Position numbers and translations under genes: made by a program. Source: an uncultured Lentisphaerales bacterium (lineage in GTDB: Bacteria > Verrucomicrobiota > Lentisphaeria > JABSQK01 > UBA12247). From it: a DNA stretch of 64,000 nt. Within the stretch, counting starts at the first letter, position 1, and each line of letters begins with the position of its first letter. A model generated the notes under the pieces. That model saw only the letters and a list, made by a program, of their open reading frames with translations, was not told the DNA's origin and ran no database searches. The stretch lies in assembly GCA_943788985.1 (NCBI GenBank), contig CALSSJ010000010.1, forward strand, positions 192,001 through 256,000, given 5' to 3'. Below are positions 2,932 through 63,711 of this stretch, in pieces.

Positions 2932-3600
2932 TTAGCGCTCCAAGGTCACCAGATAGGCCGCGATGTCACGGAGCTGCTCGTCGCTGATCTGATGTACTGC
3001 TTCGGCCATATTGAGCCCAGCAGTGTCATTGTCATCTACCGTGCGCAAGCCGTCGCGATAGTTCGCCGCCTGGCGGACGATGTATGAGCCGGGTAGTCCC
3101 ACCAGAGGCGGTGCCTTCGCGACGCGTGAGCCGCTGCCGCCCGGATGGCAGCGATTGCAGTGCAACTCGAACAGGGCGCTGCCGACCTCGGCATTGCCCT
3201 CAACGTCTGGCTTACTGCGCTCATGCGGCAGGCGCGAGAGAAAGGTGACGAAGCCTCGCATTTCTACCATCGTATTGAGATTCCGTACTGCCTCGCGCAT
3301 TGCCACTTCAGGGCCATTCTCCCGGCGAGAGCCACGTTTTCCGGTGGAGAACTCGGCCAGCTGCTTGGCGAGGTACCAGCGTGGCATGCCCGCGACCGGC
3401 GGTGCGCCGAATCCGGCATCGGCCTGGTGGCAGATTTGGCAGTCTGCGTACACCTTGTGAAAATCTGCAATGGAGCGAATCTCCGCGGCTTCCCGCGTTT
3501 CGCGTCGTTCTACCTGTTGGCAACCGGCGACGGTGATTACGATGGCCACCAGTGTGAGCAAGGCCTTCAGATTGAGACAAGGGTGGACTGGCCTACGCAT
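2932..3600 (-). CDS. Diheme cytochrome c4-family lipoprotein
   Basis: Lipobox-like VAGC, CQICH and CNRCH heme motifs, and a Met after GxR in both domains. Confidence 0.85.
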   Translation of the reverse strand: MRRPVHPCLNLKALLTLVAIVITVAGCQQVERRETREAAEIRSIADFHKVYADCQICHQADAGFGAPPVAGMPRWYLAKQLAEFSTGKRGSRRENGPEVAMREAVRNLNTMVEMRGFVTFLSRLPHERSKPDVEGNAEVGSALFELHCNRCHPGGSGSRVAKAPPLVGLPGSYIVRQAANYRDGLRTVDDNDTAGLNMAEAVHQISDEQLRDIAAYLVTLER

Positions 3601-3650
3601 TCAGCTCCAATGGTGGTATTGGTTTTGTTTTCTGAGAGAGAGGGAATACC

Positions 3651-4289
3651 ATGCTGCGGATCTTTCTGTTCGCCATGATCGCAGGCGCAATCTGCGGCTG
3701 TGGTTCAAATCAGGCGTTGGAATCGGCGTTGCTCGCCGGAGAAGAGGTCGAGCCTGGCCGGTATAGCGCCTGTATGGCGTGCCATGGGCTGATCGCGCAG
3801 GGCGACCAAGAGAAAGGCGCGCCAGCCTTGTCGCAGTTGCCTGCGGACTACCTCGTGCTGCAGATGGCAAACATCCGCGATGGCATTCGCACCGCCGCTG
3901 GCTGTGCTGAGGCGTTGGCCGCACATGAGGTGGCCGACGAGCTTGCGGACCTCGCAAAAACCATCGGGTCCTACACGGCTGTCTGGCCGGCCCCCAGCCA
4001 GCGTGGCGGAAACGTGAAGAATGGGAAAAAGATCTTCAGTACCTGCCTGGCCTGTCATGCGCCGGACGGCAGCGGGTTCCCTGCTTTGGCCGCGCCGCCG
4101 CTTATCTATCAGCATGATTGGTACCTGCGGCACACGCTGCAGGAATTTCGGACTGGTGCCCGCGGGACGCATGAGCTTGATCGCAACGGCAAGCGGATGT
4201 CCGTGGGAATCGGCTCATTCGTGCCCAGCGATGCCGCCGTTCTCGATGTTGTCGCCTACATAAACTCACTCAAAGAGGACCACCAATGA
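3651..4289 (+). CDS. Diheme cytochrome c4-family lipoprotein
   Basis: Purine-rich RBS (gagagggaa), signal peptide ending ICGC, CMACH and CLACH motifs, and an ATGA overlap with hemH. Confidence 0.85.
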   Translation: MLRIFLFAMIAGAICGCGSNQALESALLAGEEVEPGRYSACMACHGLIAQGDQEKGAPALSQLPADYLVLQMANIRDGIRTAAGCAEALAAHEVADELADLAKTIGSYTAVWPAPSQRGGNVKNGKKIFSTCLACHAPDGSGFPALAAPPLIYQHDWYLRHTLQEFRTGARGTHELDRNGKRMSVGIGSFVPSDAAVLDVVAYINSLKEDHQ

Positions 4290-5268
4290 CCCAGCTCGAC
4301 GCAGTCGTCCTTCAACCCTTCGGCGGTCCCGAGCGCAGCGAAGACGTCGTCCCGGTTCTCGATAATGTGCTGCGCGGGCGCGGCGTGCCGGAGTCGCGTA
4401 AACTCGAGGTAGCAGAACACTACCGGGAGCTGGGCGGGACCAGCCCGGCCAATGCCTGCAACCGGCGGTTTTCCGCCCATGTTGAGGCCGAACTGCGCCG
4501 CCGTGGGCGACCGCTGCGCCTGTTTCTGGGCAATCGTAATTGGCACCCGCTGTTGCCAGACACGCTTGCGCAGATGAGGGATTGCGGAGTTGGCAACGCC
4601 GCAGTCTTTGTCACTAGCGCCTTTAGCAGCTATTCCGGCTGTCGTCAATACCAAGGAGACCGAGAGCGAGCGACTGCGACCGTGGACGATGCGCCAGCGC
4701 TGCTGCCCACTGCCAAGTTCTTCAACCACCCCGGCTTCATCGAGGCAAATGCTGATCAGGTCCGGGCTGCCATAGCCTCGCTGCCCCCCCGGCCCCCATA
4801 CCTACGCTGGTCTGCACGGCGCACAGTATTCCGTGCGTCATGGCCGATTCGTCGCCCTATGTCGAGCAGCTTCGTACTACAGCCCGGTTGCTGGCAGAGG
4901 CGGTGGGGTTGGCGCCAGCACCGCTGGCTTGGCAGAGTCTCAGCGGGCCGCCCGACCAGCCTTGGCTCGAGCCCGATGTCTGCGATCATGTGGACACGCT
5001 GGCTGCGCAGGGATGCGACCGCATCGTGGTCGCGCCCATTGGCTTTTTGACCGATCACGTCGAGGTGCTGTTCGATCTTGATGATGAACTTCGCGCGCAT
5101 TGCGAACTCCGCAAGATCACGATGGCTCGCGCCAACACCGCCGGTACTCATCCGGCCATGATTCGCTTGACCGCAGACCTGATCGAAGAGGCTGCATGAA
5201 CGCCTGCGTTTTGCGCCCCCAGTTGCTGTCCAGCGAGCCCGGGAGGCCCGCATCCACGCGGCGAATAA
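4286..5268 (+). pseudogene. hemH: Ferrochelatase (actinobacterial-like, C-terminal CxxxCC type), interrupted by a frameshift and an in-frame TGA
   Basis: Motifs FGGPE, SSYSGCRQY, LVCTAHSIP, PWLEPDV and GFLTDHVEVLFDLD. Frameshift at the C7 run 4784-4790. The TGA at 5197-5199 is followed in frame by TPAFCAPSCCP...TAA at 5266-5268. Confidence 0.85.
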
Positions 5269-5348
5269 ACGCCTTTTTCGAGTATTGATTTATTATCGAT
5301 TAGATCCACGGAATAAAGAAAACCTATGGAACGGGGAGAAGGCAGCAG

Positions 5349-14357: not shown

Positions 14358-15599
14358 TCAGCCGAAGTCGTCGAAGCTGATCATATCGCGTTCTACACCG
14401 AGGCTGTCGAGCATGTTCTCGACGGCACTAAGCATCATCGGCGGGCCACAGAGGTAGTACTCGCAGTCCTCTGGAGCGTCATGATCCCGGAGGTAGTTCT
14501 CGAACGCCGCGGTATGAATGAAGCCGCGCATCCCGGTCCAGTTGTCCTCGGGCATGGGCTCCGAAAGGGCCACGTTGAAGGTGAAGTTCGGGAACTCCTT
14601 CTCAATGGCGCGAAAGTGGTCGTCGTAGAACATTTCGCGCAGGGAGCGGGCTCCATACCAATAGGAAACTTTGCGGCCGGTTTTGAGTGTGTGAAAGAGA
14701 TGGAAGATGTGCGAGCGCAATGGCGCCATACCTGCACCACCACCGATGTAGACCATCTCGCGCTCTGTCTCTCTGATGAAGAACTCTCCGTAGGCACCGG
14801 AGATGGTGACCTTATCACCTGGCTTCCGGCTGAAGACGTAGGAGGAGGCGAGGCCTGGGTTTACATCCATGAAGCCGCCTTTGGCGCGGTCGAAGGGCGG
14901 CGTAGCGATGCGAATGTTCAGCATCACGATGTTGCCCTCGGCCGGGTGGTTGGCCATGGAGTAGGCCCGGATGACTTCTTCGTTGTTGACCGTCTTGAGG
15001 CCCCACATTTTGAACTTGTCCCAGTCGCCGCGGTACTCTTCATCAATATCAAAATCTTCGAAGGATGCTTCGAACTTGGGGACTTCAATCTGAATGTAGC
15101 CACCGGATTCGAAGGGGAGGGTCTCACCTTCGGGGAGCTTGACGACGAATTCTTTGATGAAAGTGGCCACGTTGTCGTTGGAGACTACTTCACATTCCCA
15201 CTTGTTGATCGAGAAGATCTCAGCAGGAATCTCGATCTCCATGTCTTCTTTGACCTTGACTTGGCAGGAGAGGCGCCAGTTCTCACGCTCCTCCTTGCGA
15301 TTGATGTGGCTTTTCTCGGTGGGGAGAATTTCGCCACCACCGCTCTTGACCTGGCATTTGCAGACGCCGCAGGTGCCGCCGCCACCACAGGCTGACGGGA
15401 GCAGGACGCCGTTCGATGAGAGGGTGTTGAGCAGGGTGGTGCCCGCTGGGACCTCGAGAGTCTTGCTGGCGTCACCGTTGATCAGGATATTGACGGCACC
15501 CTTGTTGACGAGTTTCGACTCGGCGATGAGGATGGCGATGGTCAGCGCGACTCCGACTGCGGTCAGAATGAGGATGCTGGCGATAATAGTAGTTGTCAT
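14358..15599 (-). CDS. nqrF: Na+-translocating NADH:quinone oxidoreductase subunit F
   Basis: [12 protein letters not shown] [2Fe-2S] motif, [27 protein letters not shown] and terminal DDFG. Confidence 0.96.
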
Positions 15600-15623
15600 G
15601 AGTAAGCTCTGCCTGAAGTCGTG

Positions 15624-16247
15624 CTATTGCGCTAGATTCATGCCGGCGAAGGCCATGAAAGCCATGGATATCAAACCGGTCACAAGCATGGTGATCCCAA
15701 GGCCGCGAAGGCCGACTGGGATGTTTGAGTACCGAAGTTTCTGTCGGATTGCGGCCAGGGCCATGATGGCAATTGCCCAGCCAAGGCCGGAAGCGAAACC
15801 AAACTCCACAGATTGAACCAAGGTGTATTCGCGCTCCCACATGAACAGGGATGCGCCGAGGATGGCGCAGTTCACGGTAATGAGCGGGAGGTAGACGCCG
15901 AGCTTGTTGTACAGGCCCGCAGAGAACTTCTCGATGAACATCTCGATGATCTGCACAAACGCTGCGATGACCGCAATGAAGGCAATGAAGTTGAGGAAGC
16001 TGAGATCGACGCCTGGAAGACCAGCCCAGGCGAGTGCACCATCACGAAGCAGGAACTCACCAAGTGCCCAGTTCAAGGGGGTAGCGAGGGTCAGGACGAA
16101 GATCACTGCTAAGCCGAGATCCATTGCGGTCGAGACCTGCTTGGAGCAAGCGAGGTAGGTACACATCCCGAGAAAGAATGACAGTAAGATATTCTTGACG
16201 AAGATCATCTCGATGATGAAATTCAAATGGTTTCCAATGTCGCCCAT
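15624..16247 (-). CDS. nqrE: Na+-NQR subunit E
   Basis: [12 protein letters not shown] and [12 protein letters not shown]; position in the operon. Confidence 0.95.
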
Positions 16248-16250
16248 GAT

Positions 16251-16886
16251 CTAACTCTCCTCTTGTGGACTGAGGGTTCGTTGCACCCAGATGATCAGGC
16301 CGAGCAGAATAAAGGCGCCTGGGGCTAGGACCATCATGCCGTTGTTCGAGTAGCCGAGCTCGTAGGCTTCTGCAGGAATGACTTTGACGCCCATCACGGA
16401 GCCGGAGCCGAGTAGCTCGCGAGCAAAGCCAACGAGCGCGATGATGAATGCGTATCCGAGCCCGTTGCCGAGACCGTCAAGCAGCGATGGCCAAACTTTG
16501 TTGCCCATGGCAAATGCCTCGAGACGTCCGAGAACAATGCAGTTGGTGATGATCAGTCCGACGAATACGGATAGCTGGAGCGACATGTCGTAGGCGAAGG
16601 CTTTGAGCAACTGGTCCACGAGAATCACCAAGGTGGCGACGACGATCATCTCGATGATGATCCGGACCTGACCGGGAATCAACTTGCGGATCAATGAGAC
16701 GATGATGTTGGAGCCACAAACCACAGCGATTACAGCCAAGCCCATGACAATGGAAGGCTGGAGCTTGGCGGTGACGGCCAGTGCGGAGCAGATTCCCAAA
16801 ACCTGAATGGTAATGGGGTTGTTATCACTAAACGGGTCGGTAAAGACCTTTTTATTCTCGTCCGAGAAGAGTTCGCCGGATGCCAT
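16251..16886 (-). CDS. nqrD: Na+-NQR subunit D
   Basis: NNPITIQVLGICSALAVT and VFVGLIITNCIVLGR. Confidence 0.95.
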   Translation of the reverse strand: MASGELFSDENKKVFTDPFSDNNPITIQVLGICSALAVTAKLQPSIVMGLAVIAVVCGSNIIVSLIRKLIPGQVRIIIEMIVVATLVILVDQLLKAFAYDMSLQLSVFVGLIITNCIVLGRLEAFAMGNKVWPSLLDGLGNGLGYAFIIALVGFARELLGSGSVMGVKVIPAEAYELGYSNNGMMVLAPGAFILLGLIIWVQRTLSPQEES

Positions 16887-16888
16887 GG

Positions 16889-17671
16889 CTACCTATCTCC
16901 CTTTCTTATCTTCTCAAAGTAGGAACCGTATGCCTGCAAATAAAGCTTGAGCATGTCAGTGACGCCGTCGCTGGTGATGGTCGCCCCGCTGATGCCGTCG
17001 ACTTCATGCAAGGAGTCTTCGTCTGCCATTCCCGGCTTCATTACCTTTACGGATTGGAATGTGCCTTCGATGTCACGAACGGCCTTGCCGACGAAGTTCT
17101 GCTGGAACCAAGGCTCGGTTATCTCTGCGCCGAGGCCTGGGGTTTCCTTATGGGAGTAGAAGGTGATGCCGCGGAGCGTGTTGAGGTCGCTGTCGAGTGA
17201 GACATAGCCAAAGATGCGTCCCCAGAGGCCGTCACCAACAATCGGGATGGCATAGGCGGCAATGGTGCCGTCGTCGCCACGAAGCTGATAGACAGGGAGC
17301 TGGATGCCAGCGGTCTCTTCTTCCGAGAGGACGGTGCCTTTCTCTTCGCTCAAGAGCAGCTTGTACTGGTTCTGGAGCTTCTTGGCGAGATCGAGCTTGG
17401 TGATATCTGCGCCCTCAATGGCCGTCCCGGTGCTGTCAACGACGACGCTCTCGATTGTGGTGTAGGCTTTAGTGATGCCAGCAGCAGTGGGCTTGGCACC
17501 CAAGTCCACATTAAAGGCCTTGAGGATGTTCCGCTGCTTGTCCAGTTTGACGTTGGCCTGCTTGCGGGACTTGAGCCCCTCAGAGGCAGCGGACAAGAGC
17601 AGGGAGCTGATCACCAAGATAATCCCGGTGAAGAGCAAGACCTGGATACTTGATTTTTCAGGCTTCGACAC
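16889..17671 (-). CDS. nqrC: Na+-NQR subunit C
   Basis: N-terminal TM, GLWG, HKETPGLGAEI and the FMN-attachment motif DGISGATITS. Confidence 0.95.
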   Translation of the reverse strand: MSKPEKSSIQVLLFTGIILVISSLLLSAASEGLKSRKQANVKLDKQRNILKAFNVDLGAKPTAAGITKAYTTIESVVVDSTGTAIEGADITKLDLAKKLQNQYKLLLSEEKGTVLSEEETAGIQLPVYQLRGDDGTIAAYAIPIVGDGLWGRIFGYVSLDSDLNTLRGITFYSHKETPGLGAEITEPWFQQNFVGKAVRDIEGTFQSVKVMKPGMADEDSLHEVDGISGATITSDGVTDMLKLYLQAYGSYFEKIRKGDR

Positions 17672-18836
17672 GTTTCATCCTCCAGGCCATGTGGCGGGAA
17701 ATCACGAAGTAGTCAATGAGCGGCGCGAAGGCGTTCATGAACAAGATTGCGAGCATCATGCCTTCAGGGAAGGCTGGATTAAGAGTACGGATGACGATGG
17801 CGAGGAAGCCGATCAGAAACCCGTAGATCCATTTTCCGGTGTTGCTCTGGGCGGCTGAGACCGGATCGGTGGCCATGAAGACGAGGCCGAAGGCAAAACC
17901 GCCGCTGACTAAGTGGTAACAGAATGGTAGCGCGTTAATGGCGGTGTTATCCTTGCATGCCTGATTGAGCAGGAAGCAGGTGATAAAGGCGCCGATGAGA
18001 ACGCCGAGCATGGTGCGCCAACTGCCGATCCCGGTTGCGACCAAGTAGACCGCGCCCAGCAAACAGCAGAGGGTGGATGTCTCACCGATGGAGCCCGGAA
18101 TAAGCCCAAGGAAGAGATTGGACCAGCCACCGAAAGCTCCGCTGACGCGATCGACGACTTGGACACCGTCTTGCGCAGCTGCGACGAGTAGGGGAGTGGC
18201 ACCGCTAACACCATCGACGCCATCCTTTACGACTCGCCAGACCTGATCGCCGGAAATCTGAGCGGGATAGGCAAAGAAGAGGAAGGCACGAGCGGTGAGA
18301 GCAGGGTTGAAGATATTCATCCCAGTGCCACCAAATACTTCCTTACCAATGACGACACCAAAGCTGATACCGACAGCTACCTGCCAGAGCGGTATGGTGG
18401 GGGGTAAGACAAGCGGGAATAGTAGACCAGTAACCAAGAATCCCTCGTTGATCTCATGTTTGCGGACCACTGAGAAGACCAACTCCCAGATGCCACCCAC
18501 AGCGTAGCTACAGATGACGATTGGCATGACGCGGAGAGCGCCTTCCCAGAGGCACCGGTGGATATCGGTGGGCTGCCCCGGGGCGATGCCGGTCAAGTAT
18601 TGATAGCCAGCATTGTAGATGCCGAACAGCAGGCAAGGCATTAGGGCAACGATAACGCTGGCCATGTAACGCTTGCTGTCGATGGAGTCCCGCACATGGC
18701 ACCCACTCGCGGTGCGCTCGCGGGATACGAACAAAAAGGTCTCTTTTGCTTCGAAAAGCGGATAGAGAAGCTCTAGTTTGCCGCCCTTCTCGAAAAGAGG
18801 CCGCGCTTTGTCAAAAGCGTCTTGAATAAATCGCAC
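17658..18836 (-). CDS. nqrB: Na+-NQR subunit B
   Basis: GKEVFGGTGMNIFNPAL, DGVSGATPL (FMN), GSIGETS and FMATDPVS. Confidence 0.95.
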   Translation of the reverse strand: MRFIQDAFDKARPLFEKGGKLELLYPLFEAKETFLFVSRERTASGCHVRDSIDSKRYMASVIVALMPCLLFGIYNAGYQYLTGIAPGQPTDIHRCLWEGALRVMPIVICSYAVGGIWELVFSVVRKHEINEGFLVTGLLFPLVLPPTIPLWQVAVGISFGVVIGKEVFGGTGMNIFNPALTARAFLFFAYPAQISGDQVWRVVKDGVDGVSGATPLLVAAAQDGVQVVDRVSGAFGGWSNLFLGLIPGSIGETSTLCCLLGAVYLVATGIGSWRTMLGVLIGAFITCFLLNQACKDNTAINALPFCYHLVSGGFAFGLVFMATDPVSAAQSNTGKWIYGFLIGFLAIVIRTLNPAFPEGMMLAILFMNAFAPLIDYFVISRHMAWRMKRVEA

Positions 18837-18853
18837 TCAATTACCTCTTGGTC

Positions 18854-20222
18854 TCAAGCTTCTGCATATAAAAATTCGAGGCCTTCGCGAATAATCTTCT
18901 GCACCGGCGTCTTAGACGGGCAGACATATTCACAAAGCGCCATTTCTTCCTCAGTGACCTCGTAGATCCCGAGGCCAACCATCTCGTCGATGTCCTGAAT
19001 CATGCAACTCTTGACAAGAAACAAAGGAAACATCTTCATCGGTAACACCTTGCCATAGGCGTCGGAGGCAAATAGGGCACGATGGCCACCCCACACCTTG
19101 GTGTCGAGCCGATGTTTCTGCTTGGGCAGCCACGGCGACACATAGGTGCGAAACATACTGTGCTTGCGGAAGCCGGGTTGCATCCAGCCAACGAACTCTG
19201 AATCGATAGACTCAGGAATGAGGGTGACCATGTCATCGTAGAGGCCCACAAATCCCTCAGCGCCAATATCGGTGCCGGTCAGCACGTCTCCGGAAATGTA
19301 GCGGATGGTCTCATCGGCTACCTGGCCCCGAATCACGTTCTGCAGTGGGGCACCATTGATGGTGCGAAAGTAGCGGCGGTCCAAAGCGGAGGTCCCAGCG
19401 ACGCTGACGATCTTTTCCGGCGAGACGCGGCCCAGCACAAAAAGCTTGCCGAGCTGAATCAGCCCTTGGACGGTGATGGTCCAGACGATGTCCTGACGGC
19501 TGCGAACTGGCGCAATGTGGTGAATCTGAACGCCGACAACGCCAGCAGGATGCGGCCCGCTGAATTCGTGTATTTGGCAGTTCTTGGCGCCGCTAAAGGC
19601 GCTGCAGACGGAACCGGTGCCCGGCACGGAGAGATGAACCGCGCCAAGCGTGAGCTTGGCGCAGGCATCAATGCCAGCCTGAAAGTATTCTTCGTTGCCT
19701 TCGACCAGGACGGCGGGGTCGGGGGCAAGTGGCGCGGAGGCAATCGCAGAGACAAAGATGTCACGCGGTGTGTGCTTGGCGCGAGCTACATGTCCAAACG
19801 GACGCTCTCGAAAGAGTGCGAGTTGGCCGCTTTTGACTAGGGTCTCGCGAAGCTGTTCGCTGGATTTCCCCGGGATTGCGGCGGCTGACGTGGCCTCGAA
19901 GCTCACAGCTTCGTTCTTGCCGTCGGACTCAATGTTGACGGCAAGTAGCACGCGGCGATCGCCGCGCACAACGCCGCTGACTTCGCTGACAGTGCCGCTG
20001 ATCGGGGAGGTGAATACCTGTGATTCGTCGTCCTTGGCGTGGAACAACGGGGGTACCAGCAAGAACGCTGTCGCCGTCGCGAACGAGAAGGCGCGGCTTG
20101 ATGCCGATGAAGTCAGCAGGTCTGACCGAGGCAACGGTCGCGAGCGCGCCGTCGACAACTTCAGGATTGCTGTCGCCGGCGATGGGTACGTCATACCCTT
20201 GCTTTAGTGTAAATCTTGCCAT
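18854..20222 (-). CDS. nqrA: Na+-NQR subunit A (one-base frameshift at the G5 run 20049-20053, likely a sequencing error)
   Basis: MARFTLKQGYDVPIAG N-terminus in one frame; SPISGTV, FSGPHPAG and ALCEYVCPSK in the next frame. Removing one base restores GTPLFHAK. Confidence 0.92.
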
Positions 20223-20226
20223 GGGC

Positions 20227-20442
20227 TTAATCCTCGTCGCTAGTCGACTGGTTGGGACAAATTTCGCCGGCTTCCTTCCCACAGAACGGGCAGCTGTCCT
20301 CTCCCTGCTGGCGCAGGAATTCATTGTTGGTGCTGCAGGTGCCGTGAAATTGGCCGTCTTTCAGCAGCAGGATGCGTGCGCACAGTCCAAGCATGAACAG
20401 TGTCATCGCAATTAGAGTAACAACGAAGGTAGTTTGCATCAT
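20227..20442 (-). CDS. Small single-TM Cys-rich protein, NqrM-like (Na+-NQR maturation factor candidate)
   Basis: 71 aa: TM helix, then GTCS...SCPFCG...EIC; 1 nt after the actE stop and 4 nt before the nqrA start. Confidence 0.6.
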   Translation of the reverse strand: MMQTTFVVTLIAMTLFMLGLCARILLLKDGQFHGTCSTNNEFLRQQGEDSCPFCGKEAGEICPNQSTSDED

Positions 20443-20443
20443 G

Positions 20444-21100
20444 CTAGTCACGCAGTTGCTCCTTCTCGCCCGGCGGCACATCATCGAGGCGGGCATGCTG
20501 GCTGCGCTGCAAGGCCCGGATGTAGGCGACAATTGCCCAGCGGTCTTCCACTGCGACTTGGTGGGCATAGCCTCCCATATTTTCGTTCTCGCTGCCGTTG
20601 GTGATGATGTTGAAAAGCTCGCCATTTGGCCGAGCACGGCTTCCAGCTGTGTGGTAGCTGGTCGGCATCATCGGGCCCTTGGTCGTGATGATGCCGTCGC
20701 CATGTCCGGCTTCCCCATGACAAACGCTGCAGTATATGCCATAGCGCTCGCGACCACGCTCGAGGAGGGCTGCATCGACTGTGACTTCGTCGGGGAAGCC
20801 CGTAATGAATGTGCCGGTCGCTGCGTCGGAGGTCCTGCCGCGATAGTAATCGGACTGCTCTTCGAGGAAATCAGCCCGATCATCCTCGGTGCGGCCCCAA
20901 ACAACGGTGTGTTCGATACGCGGGCGCATTGCCCGGCCGTCGGCAAAGATCTCAGCGTGTGACTGGGCGTTATATTTAAACTGCTGGTCCATGTTTTGGT
21001 TCAGGTGCACCGGGGGCTTGCGCGAGACACGTTCGCGGCAGCCTGTAATCATCAGCAAGGCGACCGTACTCAGCAACAGTGTGGTAAATAGCCTACTCAT
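20444..21100 (-). CDS. actE: Alternative complex III monoheme cytochrome c lipoprotein ActE
   Basis: Lipobox ITGC, MDQQFKY, FADGRAMR, CSVCHG and DRWAIVAYIRALQ. Confidence 0.88.
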   Translation of the reverse strand: MSRLFTTLLLSTVALLMITGCRERVSRKPPVHLNQNMDQQFKYNAQSHAEIFADGRAMRPRIEHTVVWGRTEDDRADFLEEQSDYYRGRTSDAATGTFITGFPDEVTVDAALLERGRERYGIYCSVCHGEAGHGDGIITTKGPMMPTSYHTAGSRARPNGELFNIITNGSENENMGGYAHQVAVEDRWAIVAYIRALQRSQHARLDDVPPGEKEQLRD

Positions 21101-21644
21101 TGGGAATCAGCACCTCAACGTTTTTTCCGCCGATTGACTGCAGGAACGCGTAGCATTTTTTAGCGTCGAATCGCTCGTCCTCAGCCTCGATGCTAATAAA
21201 GAACCCATTATCCGTCGCCTTGCGAAAGTTGTCGGACTCAAAGACGGGGTGCGTATACCAAGGCAGGAAGTTCATGATAAACATGCCGATGACCGTGCCG
21301 AAGCAGGCACCGAGAATAGTCAGCTCAAAGGTAACCGGGACATAGGCCTGGAAGGCGAAGTATGGCTTGCCGGAAAGATTCATGGCGTAGCCGTGGTTGT
21401 GCACCCACCATTGGAGGGCGAAGGCAATGCTACCACCGGCGATACCACCAGCTGCCGCGACCCAGCCAAGGATTGACTTCTTTAGTCCCATAGCGGCGTC
21501 GAGACCGTGCACGGGAAAGGGTGAGTGGCAGTCGTACTTGTCGTAGCCAGCGTCGCGAACCTTCTCGGCTGCGTGGAGCAATACCGCCGGGTTGGCGAAC
21601 TCGGCCAAGACGGCAACTGCTTTTTGATTAGAGGATGCGCTCAT
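21093..21644 (-). CDS. actD: Alternative complex III subunit ActD (DUF3341)
   Basis: AEKVRDAGY...HSPFPVHGLD and PVTFELTIL, two TMs. Confidence 0.88.
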   Translation of the reverse strand: MSASSNQKAVAVLAEFANPAVLLHAAEKVRDAGYDKYDCHSPFPVHGLDAAMGLKKSILGWVAAAGGIAGGSIAFALQWWVHNHGYAMNLSGKPYFAFQAYVPVTFELTILGACFGTVIGMFIMNFLPWYTHPVFESDNFRKATDNGFFISIEAEDERFDAKKCYAFLQSIGGKNVEVLIPNE

Positions 21645-21654
21645 TGTCCGTAGC

Positions 21655-23055
21655 TCAATGTTCGTCGTGATAATTGTGCGGATCGGCTTCCGGCATGACG
21701 CCCTTGACTTCAGCAATGGCTATGACAGGCACGAAACGCAGGAACAGCAGGAACAGGGTAAAGAAGAGGCCAAAGGAGCCTACAAACATGCCGACGTCGA
21801 TGATGGTCGGTGAGAAGTAATCCCAGCTTGAAGGCATGTAGTCCTGAGAGAGAGAAGTGATGGTAATCACGAAGCGCTCGAACCACATCCCAATATTAAC
21901 GAAGATGGAGACTACGAAGAGGATGACCAGATTGCGGCGAGCGAAGCGGAACCAGAAGACCTGTGGAATGATGACGTTACAAGTGACCATGATCCAGTAG
22001 GCCCAGGCATACTGATCGGAGGCACGCAACAGGAAGATGCCACTTTCGTAGGGGCTACCGCTATACCAGGCGATGAAGAATTCGCAGGAATAGGCGTAGC
22101 CGACGAGCATGCCCGTGAGCATGATGATCTTGGCCATGTTGTCTAAGTGGCGCATCGTGATGAATGATTGCAGACCATAGATCCAGCGCACCACCACCAT
22201 GAGGGTGATCACCATAGCAAACCCTGAGAAGATCGCGCCCGCGACAAAATATGGCGGGAAGATGGTGGTGTGCCAGCCAGGAAGAATACTGACCGCAAAG
22301 TCAAAACTCACGACGGTGTGTACGGAAAGCACGAGGGGGGTGGCGATGCCGGCGAGAATCAAGTAAGCCTTCTCGTAGTTACTCCAGTGACGGTTGCTTG
22401 AGCGCCAGCCGAGGGCGAGCAGACCGTAGATGATCTGGCGCCAGCGATTGGTCGCACGGTCGCGCATGGTGGCCCAGTCCGGGATCAGCCCGACGTACCA
22501 GAATAGCAGCGAGACGGTGAAGTAGGTGTTGACAGCGAACACATCCCACAGCAGTGGGCTGCGAAAGTTCGGCCACATCGCCATCTGATTAGGCAAGGGG
22601 AAGAGGTAATAGACGGCCCAGACGCGGCCGACGTGAATCCCGGGGAATACAAGGGCACAGACGACTGCAAACAGGGTCATGGCTTCGGCGGCGCGGTTAA
22701 TGGACGTACGCCATTGCTGTCGCAGGAGGAAGAGGATGGCGGAAATGAGTGTACCGGCGTGGCCGATACCTACCCAAAACACGAAGTTCACAATCGCCCA
22801 GCCCCAGCCAGCCGGGTTATTCAGCCCCCAGACCCCTGTGCCTTTCCAGAACAACCAGAAAATCTGGAGTCCGAGTAAACCTGCGACGCTCGCAGAGATC
22901 GTAAAGGCGACGTACCAGCCGATTGGGGTCTTAGCTAGCTCCTGCTCGGCGATGCGACCGATTGTGTCGGACACCGAATGGAAGTCGTGATTCCCCTGAA
23001 CCAAGGGCTCTTGTGTTGTATCTGTTGCAGCAGCCATCTCAGCCATCTCAGCCAT
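21655..23055 (-). CDS. actC: Alternative complex III NrfD-family quinol-oxidising subunit ActC
   Basis: [42 protein letters not shown] and [19 protein letters not shown]. Confidence 0.93.
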
Positions 23056-26000
23056 TCAGTCTTGGGTTGGGATTCCGCAGCCTAGCCATGTAAGTGGTCC
23101 TCGGACGGGTCAGCAATTCGGGCAATAGGGCGTAGTTTCGCTCGTTTGCCTTCCATGCTGAAACATGGCTAGTCTTGTCGTTGATATCGCCAAAGGCAAT
23201 TGCGCCAGCAGGACATGCCTGCTGACAGGCAGTCGTGACATCGCCGTCTTTGAGGGCGCGCCCATCTACTTTGGCAGAGATGCGCGCCTGACTGATGCGT
23301 TGTACACAGTAGGTGCACTTCTCCATGACCCCGCGGAAACGGACAGTGACGTCGGGATTCTGCGAGAGCTTCTGGGTCGTAGTCTCAGCCGTCTCGCCAC
23401 GCACGTTGGTCTCGGGGCCGTTCTTGGTGAAGTTAAAGAAGTTGAAGCGTCGGACCTTGTAAGGGCAGTTGTTTGCGCAATAGCGCGTCCCGATGCAGCG
23501 GTTGTAGGTCATAGCGTTCAGGCCGTCCTTTGTGTGGCTGGTCGCACCGACCGGACAGACCTGCTCGCACGGTGCCATCTCGCAATGCATGCAGGGTACG
23601 GGCTGAACGCGCAATTCCGGATCGTCTTCGTCGCCTTTGAAGTAGCGATCGGTCCGAATCCAGTGTAATTCACGACCGTAGCCAGCATTCTCTTTGCCGA
23701 CGACAGGGATGTTGTTCTCGCTCTGACAGGCGGTCACACAGGCGTTACAACCGGTGCAGACATTCAGATCGATTGCCATGCCCCACTGATTGCCCTCGGT
23801 GTATTCATGCTCTTTCCAGAGGGCGCCGACCGTTGGGTTATGCACAGGTGGCGTCAGAGCGCTTTCGCCTTTCTCAGCGAAATTGAGGAGATCCGCTTCG
23901 AGAATCAAGGGCCGGTCGCCGCTGATTTTCTTGACCAGCTCATTGCCGTCCATGTTATGGTGCTTTTGCGTGGTTGAAAGCGGATAAGTGCCAGATGTTT
24001 TGGTAACCTTGGCTTTGCCGCCGGAGTAGGCAGCAGAGGTTGCAAGTGGGTAGGCATTGACGCCTGCGCCTTCTGCAACTGCACCAAGGTTTCGGCCGAA
24101 GCCGAGGTCTACGGAGACAGATTTATCCGAATGGCCAGGCAGAACAAATACCGGGAGAGTGAGTGTGGTGCCAGCGGTAGTCACGGTCACGAGATCTTCT
24201 TGACTCACCCCAAGGTCACGGGCCGTTGCCGGACTGACAATAGCGGCGTTGTCCCAGACCAGCTTGGTCACTGGCGATGGCAGTTCCTGCATCCAGCCAT
24301 TATTTGCAAACCGGCCGTCGTAAAGCGTGGGCGACGCAGCGAGTGCAATTTCGAAATCGGGGCCAGCGGTAAGCGTCTGGCGCTTCAATTGGGCGGTCAG
24401 TGATGTTTCGTTGATCGAGGCGTAGGGATCGCCGTACTTGGTGCCTTCGGCGACGCCGTTGTGCAGAATTGATTTCCAGGCAGCATCATTCTTGCCGACC
24501 GTAGCGCGGCAGAGCTCATAGCCGCTTTCAGCGTTGCCAAGTAGCAGACTTAGTGCTTCCAGTTCACTGATGGAATGGTGCAGAGGGGCGATGAGTGGCT
24601 GGGTAATGCCGATGGTCCCATCGGTAGTGCGCGGAGTGCCCCAGCATTCCAGCTCGAGGCTGCGTGGCAGGTGCCACTTACAGAATTCGCTGGTCTCGTC
24701 GTAGTAGTGACTCAAGTGGACCGAATGCTCGATCTTTTCGAGGGCCTCGGCAAACTTAAGATCAGCCGGGGCAGTCAAAACAGGATTGGGGCCAACAATG
24801 ACAAGCGTTGTGATTGCGCCGCTATTCATCGCCGTGACCAGTCCCGTCAACTCAGTGAGTGAGGAATCACGAGCGTCGGGGGCTTCGACGTAGGAGAGGG
24901 TGCCATCCTGAGCCGCGTTGCCCAGCGCATCATTCAAGGCTGCGATCACTGCATGGACGGAAGCGCTTTGGCCGCGGCCAGCTAGGACTACGGAGTGTTT
25001 GCCGGCTTGGGCGAGGTCAGCGGCAACGGCACCAATCCAAGTGTCGGTGACTCCTGCGGGGAGCGGAAGTTCTGGGATTGCGGCGAGTCCGGGGATGCGC
25101 TTGGGTGTGAAACCATCTCCGGACTTGGGGGCGGCTAGCCGACGGGCTAGTGCCGCGACGACGGCTGGGATGTCCGAACGGCGAACGCGGACGCGATGGT
25201 CAGCCATTCCGCCGGTGACGCTAAACGAGTGTTCCGCGACATAGAGGCGGTTCATGGCGTCCTTGCGACCATGGACTCGCCGGCCGTCTGCAAAGGCCTT
25301 GGTGTGCCGTACTGCATCGGTTTCGAGGTGAAGAAAGTCCGAATCGAGCGCGAGGATGACTTTTGCGTCTGTCAGGTCGGGGACGCCACGAACAGCCTTG
25401 CCCATGGCCGCCTTCTGGCCATCGTGAATGTTGGAATCGCTGACGGGTGCCCAGGCTGCGGTAATGGCAGCGGGGTACTTCGCCTTAAGTTTGACCATCT
25501 CAGCCTGAATCGCAGCAGAGTGATACGGGTCTACCAGAACGGCAAGGCCCAGGCCATTGGGGGCGACGGGATGTGCCCTCCAATCTTCCAGGAATGCGTC
25601 CCAAGTAGAATCTCCACCTGTGTAGGTGACGTCACGTGGGCGATCGGGATCAGCGAGAGTAAGAATTGATGCGAGCTCAAATGAGCTGACGCCGCCTGCG
25701 CTGCCTGGATGGCTGGGGTTGGGCTCGATCTTAGTGGGACGGCCTTCGTGGCTCTCAACCAAGACGCCGACTGCCTCACCGTCGCGGGTAAGCGTGGTGG
25801 CAAAGTAGACGGGCTTGCCGGGAACATATTCGGGGGGCTGGGTGCTGTAGGGAACGATCGTCTGCACGGGGCGTCGACAGCTGGTCAAGCCAGCCAGGCC
25901 CATGGAGGCTCCCATCAGCTTCATGAAGCTGCGACGATCAATTTCGCCAGCGTTATCACCAGATCCAATAGGATCCGCGGGCCCAGTGGGTGTTGCGACG

Positions 26001-26083
26001 CTGCGGTCCTGACCGCTGAGTGCGTCGTCGGCGGCACGCCACAGGGTCGTTTTAGCAGGGCTTTCCTGATTCATCGATGACAT
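23048..26083 (-). CDS. actB: Alternative complex III subunit ActB (molybdopterin-oxidoreductase-like + Fe-S domain, Tat-exported)
   Basis: [12 protein letters not shown]at signal, [45 protein letters not shown] and EKCTYC. Start at 26083 or at 26074 (ATGA overlap). Confidence 0.93.
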
Positions 26084-26724
26084 GCGGCACAGTCCTCTGG
26101 GGGGCTCAACTCTTTTTCTTGGATAATTGCTTCGGCAGCGTTGTATTGGCCCTTCGCAGGCTGCCATTCCATGTCCGTCACACTTGTCTCGGTGAGGTCG
26201 CGGATATGTTGGTGCGGATGGCGATGGCAATCGAGGCACCAGCCCATGCTGAGGGTCTCACGCTGGGTGACGATCTCCTGGCGGTCGATATCACCGTGGC
26301 AACTGGTGCAGCCAACTCCAGCTTTCAAATGAACGCTATGGTCGAAATAGGCGTATTCCGGCAACTTGTGGACGCGGACCCAATTGATAGGCTTGCCAGT
26401 TTCATAGCTTTCGCGAACTGGTGCAAGCGCCTCGCTGTTCTTTTTGATTGAACGATGGCAGTTCATGCAGGTTTGTGCTGGTGGGATATTTGCCTCGTGC
26501 GACTCTTCGATACTCGCATGGCAGTATCGGCAGTCGATTCCAAGATCGCCGGCATGCACCTTATGACTGAACGGAACGGGTTGTTCCGGCTGATAGCCGA
26601 CATCCGTATATTTCGGGGAGCCGAACCACCATAGGAGTCCTGCGATAAGCAATGGTGCTGGTGCGGCCGCGTGGATTACCACTAATGTCACCGGCGTCGT
26701 CCATGTAGGAAAAATCTGTGCCAA
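26071..26724 (-). CDS. actA: Alternative complex III pentaheme cytochrome c ActA
   Basis: MAQIF start, QPVPFSHKVH and five CxxCH motifs (CRYCH, CMNCH, CTSCH, CLDCH, CAACH). Confidence 0.93.
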   Translation of the reverse strand: MAQIFPTWTTPVTLVVIHAAAPAPLLIAGLLWWFGSPKYTDVGYQPEQPVPFSHKVHAGDLGIDCRYCHASIEESHEANIPPAQTCMNCHRSIKKNSEALAPVRESYETGKPINWVRVHKLPEYAYFDHSVHLKAGVGCTSCHGDIDRQEIVTQRETLSMGWCLDCHRHPHQHIRDLTETSVTDMEWQPAKGQYNAAEAIIQEKELSPPEDCAACHR

Positions 26725-26743
26725 AATATTACCCTCGTACGCG

Positions 26744-27628
26744 CTAAGCGCCGTATCTCCAACGATTAAGACCAGTCATCCCCTCTAGGATGATAACGCT
26801 GAATAGCGCCAGGAGATAGACAATTGAAAATAGAAAGAGGCGGATCTCAGATTGGGCAGTGCGCTCTTTGTAGGCCAAGAGCATCTTCTGCATGAAGATG
26901 ACGCCAAGCACGATTGCGGCTACGACATAAACATAGCCCGTCCCGAACAGGCCGAGTACTAAGGTTACGATCACTAGGGCGATAGAATACCACACCATCT
27001 GCTTCAAAGTGGCGTCAATACCATGGACGATGGGCATCATAGGCAGCTTTACGGTTTCGTAGTCGCTTTTGCGGTAGAGCGCTAGTGCCCAGAAATGCGG
27101 CGGGGTCCAGAGGAAAATAACCAAAAACAGTAACCATGGCTCAATGGCGCTACCATTGGTGGCTGCAGCCCATGAGATGACCGGTGCCATGGCACCCGCT
27201 GCGCCGCCGATCACAATGTTTTGGGCTGTATGTGGCTTCAACAACAAGGTGTAAAACAGGCCGTAAAACAAAATGGTGCCTAGAGCCAGCGCAGCGCTTA
27301 GGATGTTGAAGCGAATAGCAAACAGGGCGACGCCTGCGAGGCCAATAGAAACGGCGAAGGTGAGAGCAGCGCGGCTCGTGATCTCTTTCAGTGGCAGGGG
27401 GCGGCGGTCCTTGGTGCGGGCCATCTGCGCGTCGATATCCCGTTCGAAATATTGATTGAGTGCGTTCGCCGAGCCGCCCGTCATGAACAGCCCGAGCAGC
27501 ACCAAGATTGCGTCCAGCGGCCGTGTCAAGAAGGTTGCTTCCATCACCAGCGCAGCGGCACCAGTGATCACCACCAACAACATGATTGTTGGCTTCGTTA
27601 GCATGAGATACGAACGGACGACTTTCAC
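26744..27628 (-). CDS. ctaB: Protoheme IX farnesyltransferase (heme O synthase)
   Basis: LTKP, NQYFERDIDAQMARTKDRRPL, NIVIGGAAGA and FLWTPPHFWALA. Confidence 0.95.
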   Translation of the reverse strand: MKVVRSYLMLTKPTIMLLVVITGAAALVMEATFLTRPLDAILVLLGLFMTGGSANALNQYFERDIDAQMARTKDRRPLPLKEITSRAALTFAVSIGLAGVALFAIRFNILSAALALGTILFYGLFYTLLLKPHTAQNIVIGGAAGAMAPVISWAAATNGSAIEPWLLFLVIFLWTPPHFWALALYRKSDYETVKLPMMPIVHGIDATLKQMVWYSIALVIVTLVLGLFGTGYVYVVAAIVLGVIFMQKMLLAYKERTAQSEIRLFLFSIVYLLALFSVIILEGMTGLNRWRYGA

Positions 27629-27669
27629 AGCGGCTCTGTCAGGTTTACGGCGAGAAAAATGAAGCAGGG

Positions 27670-27698
27670 AATTTAAGTATCGGACCCGCGTCCGTCAA
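27670..27698 (-). promoter_or_regulatory. Putative sigma70 promoter of the ctaB-act-nqr operon
   Basis: The minus strand reads TTGACG-N17-TAAATT, about 40 nt upstream of the ctaB start. Confidence 0.6.
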
Positions 27699-31180: not shown

Positions 31181-31256
31181 GCCAATGTAGCTCAGTCGGT
31201 AGAGCAGCTCACTCGTAATGAGCAGGTCAGCGGTTCGAATCCGCTCATTGGCTCCA
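31181..31256 (+). tRNA. tRNA-Thr(CGU)
   Basis: 76-nt cloverleaf: GCCAATG/CATTGGC acceptor stem, GCTCA/TGAGC anticodon stem with CGT at 31214-31216, GGTTCGAATCC T-arm and encoded CCA. Confidence 0.96.
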
Positions 31257-56650: not shown

Positions 56651-57836
56651 CTACACCTCTTCTCTGCCCAATTCGTTCAAATGCTCGCACAATCGGTCAA
56701 TCCTGGCCGGGTCCAGGCCAGGATAGTTCCCGATATAAAAACCAAAACTGTGGACATGCTCGACGTTCGGGAAATCCTCTGGTCTTGTGTCCGGGCACGC
56801 GCGCCGCACGAATGGCTGACGCACTTGATTGCCACCCCCGGACATCCCGCGCCGAAATTCGACGCCAAGATCGTTCAGGCAAGTGATCACTCGTTGCAGT
56901 AGGGCCTCGTCTGGTTGTTTCAGCAGCAGAGTAAGGGCGTAGTTGCAGCTGCCCTCCGCGGCAAAGTCCGTCACATAAAAATCGCTGGACAGGCTGGCCA
57001 GAAAGCGCGCTAGATTGTCCCGACGGGTCTGGTTATTCTCGTCCAGCCTCTTTAACTGCGAGCGGCCTAGCACGCCACAGAGCTCGTTGCTCCGCACGTT
57101 TACGCCAGCGTATGAAAAAATAAACTCGGGATGAAGGTCTGGGTACTCCGCGGCCCCAGCGCGAGCGAATCTCGGGGTCCGTCGCCTCACGCACCATTCC
57201 ATGGGAGCGTAGCATGCGCAACATCTGGTAGAGGTCCACATCATCCGTGCCGACGAAGCCGCCCTCAATCGTGCTCATGTGATGCGCAAAATAGAAGGAA
57301 AAGTTACTGGCCCAACCATGCGCTCCCACCTTACGGCCAGCGAATTCCGCGCCATGAGATTCACAACAATCCTCGATCAGCACCACATCGTTGTCTGCAC
57401 ACAGCTCCAGCAGCTCGTGTGACAGCGCGTTGTAGCCGAGAACGTGGGTCAGGAATACCGCTCGAGTCTCTGGCGTGATCGCTGCCGCGACTGCATCTAC
57501 TGCCATTCCCAGCGTGTGCAGATCGATGTCCACAAATACCGGACGCATGCCCACGTGTAGCACAGATGCGATATCGCTGCTCCAAGTCAGGGTAGGCACG
57601 ATCACCTCTCCGTCGCCGAACTGCTCACGCACGGCCAGCATCGTCAACAGGTTGGCGGATGAGCCAGAATTGACCATCAGCCCGTATTTGCAGCCCACCC
57701 AGGCCGCGAACTCCTGCTCGAACAGGCTGACTTCTTCGCCTTGTGTCAGGCGGGAGTCTGGGTCGGATAAGTGGGCAATCAACGCCAGACGGTCGTCGGC
57801 GGAGATGCAGTTATTCATCAGCGGCCAGTCTGGCAT
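56651..57836 (-). CDS. PLP/PMP-dependent NDP-4-keto-sugar 3-dehydratase (ColD/E1-like); one-base frameshift at 57154-57157
   Basis: VNSGSSANL, EDCCESHGA and SFYFAHHMSTIEGG (His in place of the PLP Lys). Removing one base restores RSRWAAEYPDLHPEFIF. Confidence 0.8.
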
Positions 57837-62266: not shown

Positions 62267-63711
62267 GTGTCTAAAACATCACTGAGCAAATGTCTGAGCG
62301 GCACCGAGTCGCTGGTGATCGATAGCCAGACCATGTCCGTGCACGAGTCGCTGCTTTCGGAGGTGCTGCGGGAAAGCAACGACCAGGTACCACAAGACTT
62401 GAAGCGTGAAGAACTCTCTGCTGTGGACGAGGAAGAGTATTACTGGAAGGTCATGGACCGCGGCGAGGGCGAAGAGCGCTACCGCGAGGAGCGCGAGATT
62501 GGCGCTGGCGGCATGGGTACTGTGAATCTTGTATTCGACGCCGACTTTTTGCGGTATTCCGCGATGAAGGTCATTCTCCCGGAGATCAAGTGCAAGCCAG
62601 AGGCACTCGCCGGCTTCATCCGCGAAGCTCGCATTACGGCGGAACTAGAACATCCCAACATTATCCCCGTGCATGACATGGGCTATGCGCCGGACCGGGG
62701 CATGTACTTCACCATGAAGCATGCTACTGGCGAGCCGCTCGTGCAGATTCTACGGCAAATCGAGCTGGGGAATCCACGCTATCGCGAGAAGTATAATTTT
62801 CTTTGCCTTGCTCGCGATCTTTTCGTAAAGTTTGTGACGCTGTCGCCTATGCCCATTCGCGCAACGTGATTCATCGCGACATCAAACCGCACAACATCAT
62901 GGTGGGTGACTACGGCGAAGTCCTGCTGATGGACTGGGGCCTGGCGAAATACATTGATGCCGACGCGCACGTTCCCGCTCCAATTTCCTACGCCAGGCGG
63001 AATGTGCTGGACGCGACAGCGACTGGCTTTGGCATGATTAAGGGCTCTCCCGCCTACATGTCCCCGGAGCAAGCCAGCGGAGAGCCGGATATTCTCGATC
63101 GGCGCAGTGATATTTTTCTCCTTGGCGCAACCCTATATCACATTTTTACGCTCTACCCGCCCTATTTGGCGGACGACATTATGGAGATCGTCAGCAAAGC
63201 GCGTCGGGCGGAGTTCACCCCACCGGCTTCTACGCGAACTGGCTGGATGGAGTTGCCTGAAGAGCTGTCGCAGATCATTGAAGAGGCGATGGCTGCTGAC
63301 CCCAACGAACGCTATGAGGACGTCGAGTCCTTGAGCGGAGATCTGGACTCGCTGATTCGGGGGGACATGCATTTTGGCAGTCGGACCTTCGAGCCGGGAG
63401 ACGTGATGATTCAGGAAGGCGACATCGGCTACGATTGTTACGTGATCATTGCGGGTAAGGTTGCGGTCTTGCGCGGAGGCAGCGAGATCGCAATGCTGGG
63501 GCCGGGAGACATCGTCGGCGAAATGGCGCTCATTACCCACGAGTTTCGATCGGCCACAGTCAAAGCGGTAGAGCGCACCCAGGCTTATGTGCTTACTCAG
63601 GATTTGTTCACCCGTAACCTGAAGAAGTTGCCCTCTTGGATGGCCCAAATGATTGTCACCCTCGCGGAGCGTTTACGCGAGTGCAATTCGCGCATCGCTG
63701 AGCACGAATAG
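62267..63711 (+). CDS. Hanks-type Ser/Thr kinase with a C-terminal cNMP-binding domain (frameshifted at the T runs 62797-62800 and 62820-62823)
   Basis: GAGGMG, AMK, HPNI, HRDIKPHN, DWGLA and GSPAYMSPEQ; cNMP domain GEMAL..RSATV. Confidence 0.87.

Follow-up and report, generated by a model that had tools for sequence, protein, structure and literature searches.

A conserved gene block joining an ActF-less alternative complex III to Na+-NQR in a Lentisphaerota-like bacterium

Gene content and organization of the locus

Genes for alternative complex III (ACIII) as well as for Na+-NQR lie next to each other in the window, i.e. the whole 64,000-nt stretch of DNA that was analysed, from an uncultured Lentisphaerales bacterium. 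On the minus strand, from position 27628 down to 14358, ctaB, actA to actE, a small ORF coding for 71 residues and nqrA to nqrF follow each other head to tail. Family models match 12 of the 13 scanned ORFs under these names, the small ORF matching no model of Pfam or NCBIfam. Together with the coordinates, they bear out the 13-gene content, order and strand that had been proposed from the nucleotides alone (hereafter the sequence-only reading). All features of the block described below are on this strand.

The gene ctaB (26744..27628, GTG start) codes for a heme o synthase of 294 residues (NF003349, 2.9e-87, above cut-off; PF01040). It is followed by actA (26071..26724), coding for the pentaheme cytochrome c subunit of ACIII with five CxxCH motifs, and by actB (23048..26083), a fused B1/B2 gene (molybdopterin-like and 4Fe-4S) with a twin-arginine signal. 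The start of actB is probably the ATG at 26083 or 26074, ahead of this signal; an apparent 169-nt frame overlap between actA and actB is accounted for by the downstream ATG. The product of actC (21655..23055) is the NrfD-type quinol-interacting membrane subunit (PF03916, 7e-23), 66-73% identical to its relatives. The gene actD (21093..21644), whose start is probably the ATG at 21644, matches PF11821 (7e-63; 211.7 bits, cut-off 25.7), and actE (20444..21100) codes for a lipoprotein monoheme cytochrome c with one CxxCH motif and a lipobox. The small ORF (20227..20442) codes for an N-terminal transmembrane helix and a tail of the form G-T-C-S...C-P-x-C-G...C.

The six subunits of NQR are encoded in order by nqrA (18854..20222), nqrB (17658..18836; NF003756, 8.5e-161), nqrC (16889..17671; TIGR01938, 2e-59), nqrD (16251..16886), nqrE (15624..16247) and nqrF (14358..15599; TIGR01941, 8.8e-197). 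All match the equivalogs TIGR01936-01941 above cut-off, the value for nqrF being the best, but nqrA falls below the cut-offs of four NF0037xx nqrA models. Cys33 and Cys116 of NqrD are invariant in 70 of 70 aligned rows and Cys29 and Cys127 of NqrE in 69 of 69; these four membrane cysteines are presumably the ligands of the Fe centre.

The tight packing put forward in the sequence-only reading holds at every junction. The genes overlap at actA-actB (4 or 13 nt, depending on the actB start), actB-actC and actD-actE (8 nt each) and nqrB-nqrC (14 nt). They are separated by 19 nt at ctaB-actA, 10 nt at actC-actD, 1 nt from actE to the small ORF, 4 nt from the latter to nqrA, 17 nt at nqrA-nqrB, 2 nt at nqrC-nqrD, 3 nt at nqrD-nqrE and 24 nt at nqrE-nqrF. 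The block has a sulfatase, a TonB receptor and sugar-nucleotide enzymes as neighbours in the window, and an Rfam scan of the window returned a tRNA alone (31181-31253).

Conservation in related genomes

Relatives were collected by a genome scan with a 20-sequence NqrA alignment, which yielded 599 stretches; the best 80 of 554 relatives were analysed and constitute a sample rather than a census. A scan with a single NqrA protein had found no relative, its exact 8-mer patterns being too specific. The adjacency of actE and nqrA, which the sequence-only reading had proposed to look for elsewhere, was recovered together with the small ORF: 10 of these 80 loci carry actBCDE, the small ORF and nqrA-F in the same order and on the same strand. 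All 10 are Lentisphaeria or 'Verrucomicrobia' MAGs. All eight of the loci whose sequence extends to the position of actA contain this gene, and five of these eight also have ctaB.

In the NqrA tree, the window groups with the 10 loci in a single clade of 13 rows (SH-aLRT 99), which also includes L007, a locus with the small ORF and nqrA but no actE upstream. Only the block itself was kept, since 46 flanking ORFs from nine block-bearing loci have nothing in common. No ACIII gene was found within the sequence at hand, some of it on short contigs, in 69 of the 80 nqr loci (best 80 of 554 relatives; L007 included), and one further locus, L012, begins inside nqrA and cannot be scored. As the sequence-only reading held, the arrangement is unusual in this sample, and no published description of a joined ACIII-nqr block was found. 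The best explanation is that these respiratory genes of a Lentisphaerota-like PVC bacterium form a block that is conserved and lineage-specific.

A small cysteine-rich protein associated with nqr

The small protein carries four cysteines (C36, C51, C54 and C62), invariant in 12 of 12 sequences and located after the N-terminal hydrophobic helix. Its homologues had to be collected with a profile, as a word-based search gave two clusters only. Members of its family adjoin nqr in 26 of the best 80 loci (of 554 relatives), 16 of them without ACIII, for which reason the small ORF is considered an nqr gene: it belongs with nqr and is neither a neutral spacer nor a part of ACIII. Fifteen of the 26 members are upstream of nqrA, including those of five loci devoid of ACIII (L007, L013, L016, L018 and L022), and in 8 of 10 relatives no more than 30 nt lie between the stop codon of the small ORF and the start of nqrA. 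The other 11 come from Bacteroidales, where they immediately follow nqrF-apbE. The family marks nqr operons in Lentisphaerota, Spirochaetota and Bacteroidales, and NQR is a major respiratory enzyme in the last of these. This affiliation had been missed in the sequence-only reading.

NqrM reportedly consists of a single transmembrane helix and four conserved cysteines, an architecture that the small protein shares, and the 26 loci (among the best 80 of 554) provide the NqrM-like placement next to nqr or apbE. PF04400 (NqrM) did not match the small ORF of the window at E<=10, nor any of 18 locus-encoded or 148 library members of the family. NCBIfam gave no match to the small ORF, and across the small ORF and its relatives both Pfam and NCBIfam returned sub-threshold, zinc-ribbon-like noise only. 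An Atlas search provided a weak lead to an NqrM-containing cluster (score 0.88, rank 23). In a complex prediction, the small protein reached a score of 0.09 with NqrD and NqrE, the mark being 0.32; this value counts neither way. As neither PF04400 nor NCBIfam gives a match, the case for an NqrM-like role is drawn from architecture and gene neighbourhood, which make the small protein a candidate NqrM-like maturation factor. The FeoB-associated Cys-rich membrane proteins (PF12669) are also small, with an N-terminal transmembrane helix, a Cys-rich tail and an iron-handling context. Membership in PF12669 was rejected: one of 18 locus-encoded members (L037) gave a weak match (E 0.0056), below cut-off.

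Transcription of the block

The sequence-only reading had proposed a single operon behind one promoter. The sigma-70-like match on which this was based, TTGACG-N17-TAAATT at 27670..27698, is indeed present 42 nt upstream of the ctaB start and scores 9/12. It is no better than chance: three promoter-like matches were observed in 14.2 kb against 6.3 +/- 2.7 in shuffled sequences, which is not significant. Terminator-like hairpins in the block are all weak and all inside coding sequence. A single transcript from ctaB to nqrF is plausible here on the basis of the gene packing.

The relatives provide an argument against a single operon. In 7 of 10, actE and the small ORF are separated by 117-243 nt, which makes a second promoter ahead of the small ORF possible. 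Among the four loci whose gaps were scanned, L003 contains three promoter-like matches in this gap against 0.5 +/- 0.6 expected, and L009 one against 0.4. The act and nqr parts may hence be separately driven, at least in relatives. The main alternative to a common transcript is a pair of neighbouring units, ctaB-actABCDE and small ORF-nqrABCDEF, which share their orientation but are transcribed separately, with an inherited synteny; the 1-nt junction of the window would then be a secondary compaction, leaving the nqr promoter inside actE. The five loci mentioned above, in which the small ORF-nqr unit occurs without ACIII, agree with such a division. However, L004, L005 and L006 as well as the window have an overlap or at most 16 nt at the junction of actE and the small ORF, and no sense-strand terminator-like hairpin was detected in the gaps of the four relatives scanned. 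Moreover, a pattern scan found no promoter-like match within actE of the window, the two internal matches both being in actD. Two separate units are regarded as a minority possibility, and co-transcription in this genome remains the preferred interpretation.

The frameshift in nqrA

The gene nqrA, whose interruption was overlooked in the sequence-only reading, is divided between two frames. Its first ~58 codons start with the ATG at 20222 and the remainder lies in the +1 frame, the change occurring at a C5 homopolymer (20049..20053). Correspondingly, the NQRA_N profile is matched over positions 2-56 in one frame and over 55-93 in the +1 frame, so that no full-length NqrA can be made from the window as written. 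An intact NqrA of 455 residues (P0005) is encoded on three other contigs. It is 100% identical to the part in the second frame, runs from the first frame into the second across the C-run and needs one C fewer. At least three other genes of the window are likewise split, at about 4790, 57130-57197 and 62760-62820. An assembly or sequencing indel in the C-run is the likeliest explanation, rather than a real loss of NQR, because an otherwise identical NqrA is intact on other contigs and because at least three more genes are broken. A programmed frameshift was ruled out, since nqrA is read without a change of frame in each of the 10 relatives and in P0005.

Alternatively, the strain could be losing NQR, in which case the frameshift would be genuine and the nqr genes remnants in decay. 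The frameshift is present in the sequence as given, and the four or more split genes of the window, nqrA included, could also signal genome decay. This seems improbable given the intact NqrA on the three other contigs, the shift by a single base within a homopolymer and the intact nqrB-F, which score far above curated cut-offs. In practice, nqrA serves as a warning that gene-breaking indels are present in this assembly.

Comparison with known systems

The ACIII of Rhodothermus marinus, Flavobacterium johnsoniae and Chloroflexus aurantiacus are ActABCDEF[G]. The present genes resemble them in canonical order, pentaheme ActA, fused Tat-exported ActB, NrfD-type ActC, ActD (PF11821) and lipoprotein monoheme ActE, and differ from them by the lack of actF and actG in the block. 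ACIII clusters are linked to oxidase genes in other organisms, whereas here nqr genes come next. The block and 39 flanking ORFs of the window yielded no actF, second NrfD or oxidase gene, and ActF (a second NrfD) is absent also from the 10 related loci. The sequence-only reading overlooked that ACIII without ActF is a reported variant, e.g. the actABCDE-only clusters of Nitrospirales (PMC12342949). The complex encoded here is thus an ActF-less ActABCDE with a predicted quinol:cytochrome c oxidoreductase activity.

The best NCBIfam matches of ActA, ActB and ActC are QrcA, QrcB and QrcC of the menaquinone reductase Qrc (QrcABCD) of sulfate reducers, or DsrP, due to shared building modules. These matches are far below curated cut-offs (e.g. 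75 versus 180 bits), and ActD and ActE, which to our knowledge Qrc does not contain, are present here.

Like the Vibrio-type nqrABCDEF-apbE-nqrM operon, the nqr part has six structural genes in this order, the conserved cysteines of NqrD and NqrE and an attached small gene coding for one transmembrane helix and four cysteines. In the Vibrio-type operon, the role of NqrM as a maturation factor and the position of its gene after apbE are described in a review (PMC12174285). Contrary to this arrangement, the small gene is here upstream of nqrA and has no PF04400 match, the window lacks apbE and nqr is joined to ACIII.

Proposed function and significance

Na+-NQR is a Na+-pumping NADH:quinone reductase, which reduces the quinone pool that ACIII re-oxidises. 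The NADH to quinone to cytochrome c module of the sequence-only reading follows from these known activities. We assign a probability of roughly two in three to the overall reading of the locus as a conserved block of ctaB, an ActF-less ACIII, a small Cys-rich gene and nqr, with probable co-transcription, a putative NqrM-like role for the small protein and a presumed indel in nqrA. In this genome, the 13 genes would mostly be co-transcribed from upstream of ctaB. It would follow from such co-transcription that both quinone-pool enzymes are made together, the electrons passing from NADH through Na+-NQR, quinone and ACIII to cytochrome c, and the co-produced CtaB would serve the synthesis of heme O/A for an oxidase whose genes lie elsewhere. 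The gene of the small protein would be the first of the nqr unit, and its product would act like NqrM, its four cysteines passing iron to the Cys4 site of NqrD/NqrE. The break in nqrA would be an assembly or sequencing artefact.

A bolder version, in which the two complexes bind each other physically in the membrane as a dedicated NADH:cytochrome c 'respiratory string' and the small protein is both an unrecognised accessory or assembly subunit and the missing maturation factor of the NQR iron centre in Bacteroidota, Spirochaetota and Lentisphaerota, where no recognisable NqrM adjoins nqr, is held to be unlikely. Somewhat less likely still is the suggestion of the sequence-only reading that NQR and ACIII make up a physical supercomplex or a unit for reverse electron transport: the conserved linkage, its one argument, is equally well explained by co-regulation, no bridging or fused subunit was found in the block and the sole additional gene accompanies nqr without ACIII in other phyla. 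The flanking genes would moreover suit an NADH-oxidising heterotroph rather than reverse transport. Finally, an assembly chimera at the actE-nqrA junction is considered refuted and the arrangement real, since the junction, small ORF included, recurs in 10 independent loci from MAGs whose flanking genes differ, and no shift in GC content occurs there.

The genes of different respiratory complexes are usually found at separate places. That the block of ctaB, ACIII, small Cys-rich and nqr genes has stayed together while the genomes around it were extensively rearranged points to selection for the joint production of both complexes, and co-regulation or association of NQR and ACIII could be studied in this natural system. 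The small protein, which no Pfam or NCBIfam model covers, may matter beyond this block. If it does load the iron centre of NqrD/NqrE, it would fill a gap in the assembly of non-proteobacterial NQR and would be required for heterologous NQR expression.

Gene content and junctions of the block

Thirteen ORFs follow one another between 27628 and 14358 on the minus strand (ORF list of the window), 12 of which were identified with NCBIfam and Pfam. The gene ctaB codes for heme o synthase (2.9e-87), actA for a multiheme cytochrome c with five CxxCH motifs, actB for a 1,063-aa ORF composed of a molybdopterin-like and a 4Fe-4S part (NCBIfam/Pfam), actC for NrfD (7e-23), actD for a PF11821 protein (7e-63) and actE for a cytochrome c with one CxxCH motif and a lipoprotein signal. 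The genes nqrA-F match TIGR01936-01941, every one above cut-off (nqrF, 8.8e-197). The 169-nt overlap that the raw ORF list gives for the actA and actB frames is spurious, because the probable start of ActB, most likely ATG 26083 or 26074, precedes a twin-arginine signal. For ActD, ATG 21644 is the most likely start. With the revised starts all junctions are overlaps or gaps of at most 24 nt, the small ORF being separated from actE by 1 nt and from the nqrA ATG (20222) by 4 nt; the gene content, order and tight packing described in the sequence-only reading are therefore correct. The sole Rfam match within the window is a tRNA gene at 31181-31253 (+).

The nqrA gene is interrupted. The frame opened by ATG 20222 (frame A) stops at 19929, and the long nqrA ORF (20194..18854, frame B) lies in the +1 frame, its first 48 residues resembling nothing. 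The Pfam profile NQRA_N is divided between the two, frame A matching its positions 2-56 (E 3.5e-10) and frame B its positions 55-93, and the shift was located at a C5 run (20049-20053, minus strand). The database protein P0005 (455 aa, seen on 3 contigs) is 100% identical to the frame-B part; it exactly follows frame A to '...AGTP' and continues in frame B with 'LFHAKDDE...', which corresponds to one C fewer. Three other genes are split over two frames: hemH, coding for ferrochelatase (4286-5300, +, near 4790), an RfbH/DegT-like aminotransferase gene (56651-57836, -, near 57130-57197) and a Ser/Thr kinase gene (62267-63711, +, near 62760-62820). With nqrA, the 64 kb contain at least 4 broken genes, which suggests indel errors in the assembly, the likeliest origin of the nqrA frameshift; a real strain-specific pseudogene is a less probable alternative. 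A conserved recoding site at the C run is ruled out, since all 10 related loci have nqrA uninterrupted in one frame.

Conservation of the act-nqr junction

A genome scan with a single NqrA protein as query returned no relatives. A second scan, for which 20 aligned NqrA sequences served as query, gave 554 confirmed loci, the best 80 of which were searched for the block genes by tblastn with the window's own proteins. The adjacency of actE and nqrA recurs in 10 of these best 80 of 554 (L001-L006, L008-L011), where nqrA is preceded by actB, actC, actD, actE and the small ORF, with order and strand unchanged. Among the eight ACIII-linked loci extending far enough, actA was found in all and ctaB in five; in L002, L010 and L011 ctaB is missing and unrelated opposite-strand genes precede actA. 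A chimera at the actE-nqrA junction, a concern of the sequence-only reading, is excluded, the junction being conserved among loci whose flanks differ. Compared over 9 loci (46 ORFs), the sequences flanking the block have nothing in common and contain no oxidase, apbE or cytochrome gene; only actABCDE-small ORF-nqrABCDEF, often with ctaB, is therefore kept together as the conserved unit.

In the NqrA tree (80 rows, without L053 and L062, whose sequences were too short), one clade with SH-aLRT 99 unites the ten ACIII-linked loci and L007 with the window and its 75% relative P0006. In L007, nqrA and the small ORF are present, with a divergent ankyrin-repeat gene in the place of actE upstream. Every one of the ten ACIII-linked loci is a MAG labelled Lentisphaeria, Lentisphaerales or 'Verrucomicrobia'. 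Among 120 GyrB matches listed, 6 of the 11 relatives with organism names (60-66% identity) are Lentisphaeria, Lentisphaerae or Victivallales MAGs, which agrees with a Lentisphaeria-side placement of the window. Two loci show peculiarities of their own: an apparent NqrB-NqrC fusion in one unbroken ORF (L006:11367-13487, a Lentisphaeria MAG), and unusually long gaps between nqr hits (L001:11359-15718; 168, 257, 172 and 625 nt, vs 0-30 nt elsewhere).

Unlike full ACIII, the window's cluster is devoid of actF, a state matching a variant already reported (PMC12342949). In the part of PMC6349859 consulted, ACIII and NQR are named together merely as separate parts of one chain. ACIII without actF is thus already known, and no published description of the act-nqr joining was found in a full-text search of the main text of open-access papers.

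Transcription and electron transport

The single upstream promoter proposed in the sequence-only reading exists as a TTGACG-N17-TAAATT site (27698..27670), but as a pattern match it gives no evidence of function: the 14.2 kb hold 3 promoter-like matches in all, where shuffles yield 6.3 +/- 2.7. The act and nqr genes are packed without intergenic room in the window and L004-L006; the other seven of the 10 ACIII-linked relatives have room, with 117-243 nt separating actE from the small ORF. In the four relatives scanned, no sense-strand terminator-like hairpin was found in this gap, and promoter-like matches occur just 5' of the small ORF in L003 (3 vs 0.5 +/- 0.6 expected) and L009 (1 vs 0.4). 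Transcriptional read-through from act to nqr is likely, and the small ORF-nqr unit may have an extra promoter of its own.

Given what the two complexes are known to do, the block would supply NADH to quinone (Na+ pumping) and quinol to cytochrome c electron transfer. Co-regulation is the economical explanation of the linkage; no evidence was found for the supercomplex or reverse electron transport also envisaged initially. The presence of ctaB suggests that a heme O/A oxidase is encoded at another site, no such gene occurring within the 64-kb window or the relatives' flanks. Two c-type cytochrome genes in divergent orientation (PdsA-like diheme and ccoP-like, 2932-4289) adjoin hemH about 10 kb from nqrF, and their products are possible electron acceptors for ACIII.

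A small-protein family associated with nqr

The small ORF (20227..20442, -) codes for a 71-aa protein with an N-terminal hydrophobic helix followed by G-T-C-S, C-P-x-C-G and a fourth Cys, and matches no Pfam or NCBIfam model. The four Cys are invariant in an alignment of twelve homologues. The homologue of L004 (9753-9977) bears a His-rich C-terminal tail (…HEHHHHDADEH), which fits a metal-handling role. In 8 of the 10 ACIII-linked relatives, the small-ORF stop lies at most 30 nt from the nqrA ATG.

A family HMM run over 10,702 small ORFs from the best 80 of 554 loci matched in 26 of the 80 (23 at E<=0.001, 3 at 0.016-0.037), every time beside nqr. Fifteen matches lie upstream of nqrA, in the ten ACIII-linked loci, L007 and four Spirochaetota or Leptospiraceae loci (L013, L016, L018, L022). 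The other 11, in Bacteroidales or Rikenellaceae, come straight after nqrF-apbE on the opposite strand, apbE being identified by tblastn in 11/11 and by Pfam in L029 and L019. As the family always accompanies nqr, including in loci without ACIII link, it is an nqr accessory gene and not an ACIII subunit. Six loci (L030, L032, L035, L050, L061, L079) have apbE after nqrF, but the family was undetected in their available sequence; another or more divergent factor may serve there. At E<=0.001 a profile search retrieved 272 cluster representatives, with lengths of 50-110 aa in nearly all cases.

NqrM, the NQR maturation factor, reportedly combines a single TM helix with four conserved Cys, a description ascribed to Kostyrko et al. 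2016. In the window's NqrD and NqrE, four invariant membrane Cys are retained. According to PMC12174285 and PMC6209661, insertion of the intramembrane iron centre is the presumed role of NqrM, and in Vibrio nqrF is followed by apbE and nqrM, whereas the window's small ORF lies upstream of nqrA. PF04400 matched none of the small-ORF homologues (0/18 locus-encoded; 0/148 in the library, the long repeat proteins P0219 and P0233 being left out of that scan), and the one Atlas lead, to a cluster with PF04400 in 46% of its members, stayed below threshold (0.88, rank 23). On these profiles the small-ORF protein would not be assigned to the NqrM family (PF04400); that it works like NqrM has roughly an even chance (about 0.5). 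Of all the results of the analysis, this small-protein family tied to nqr offers the most useful lead.
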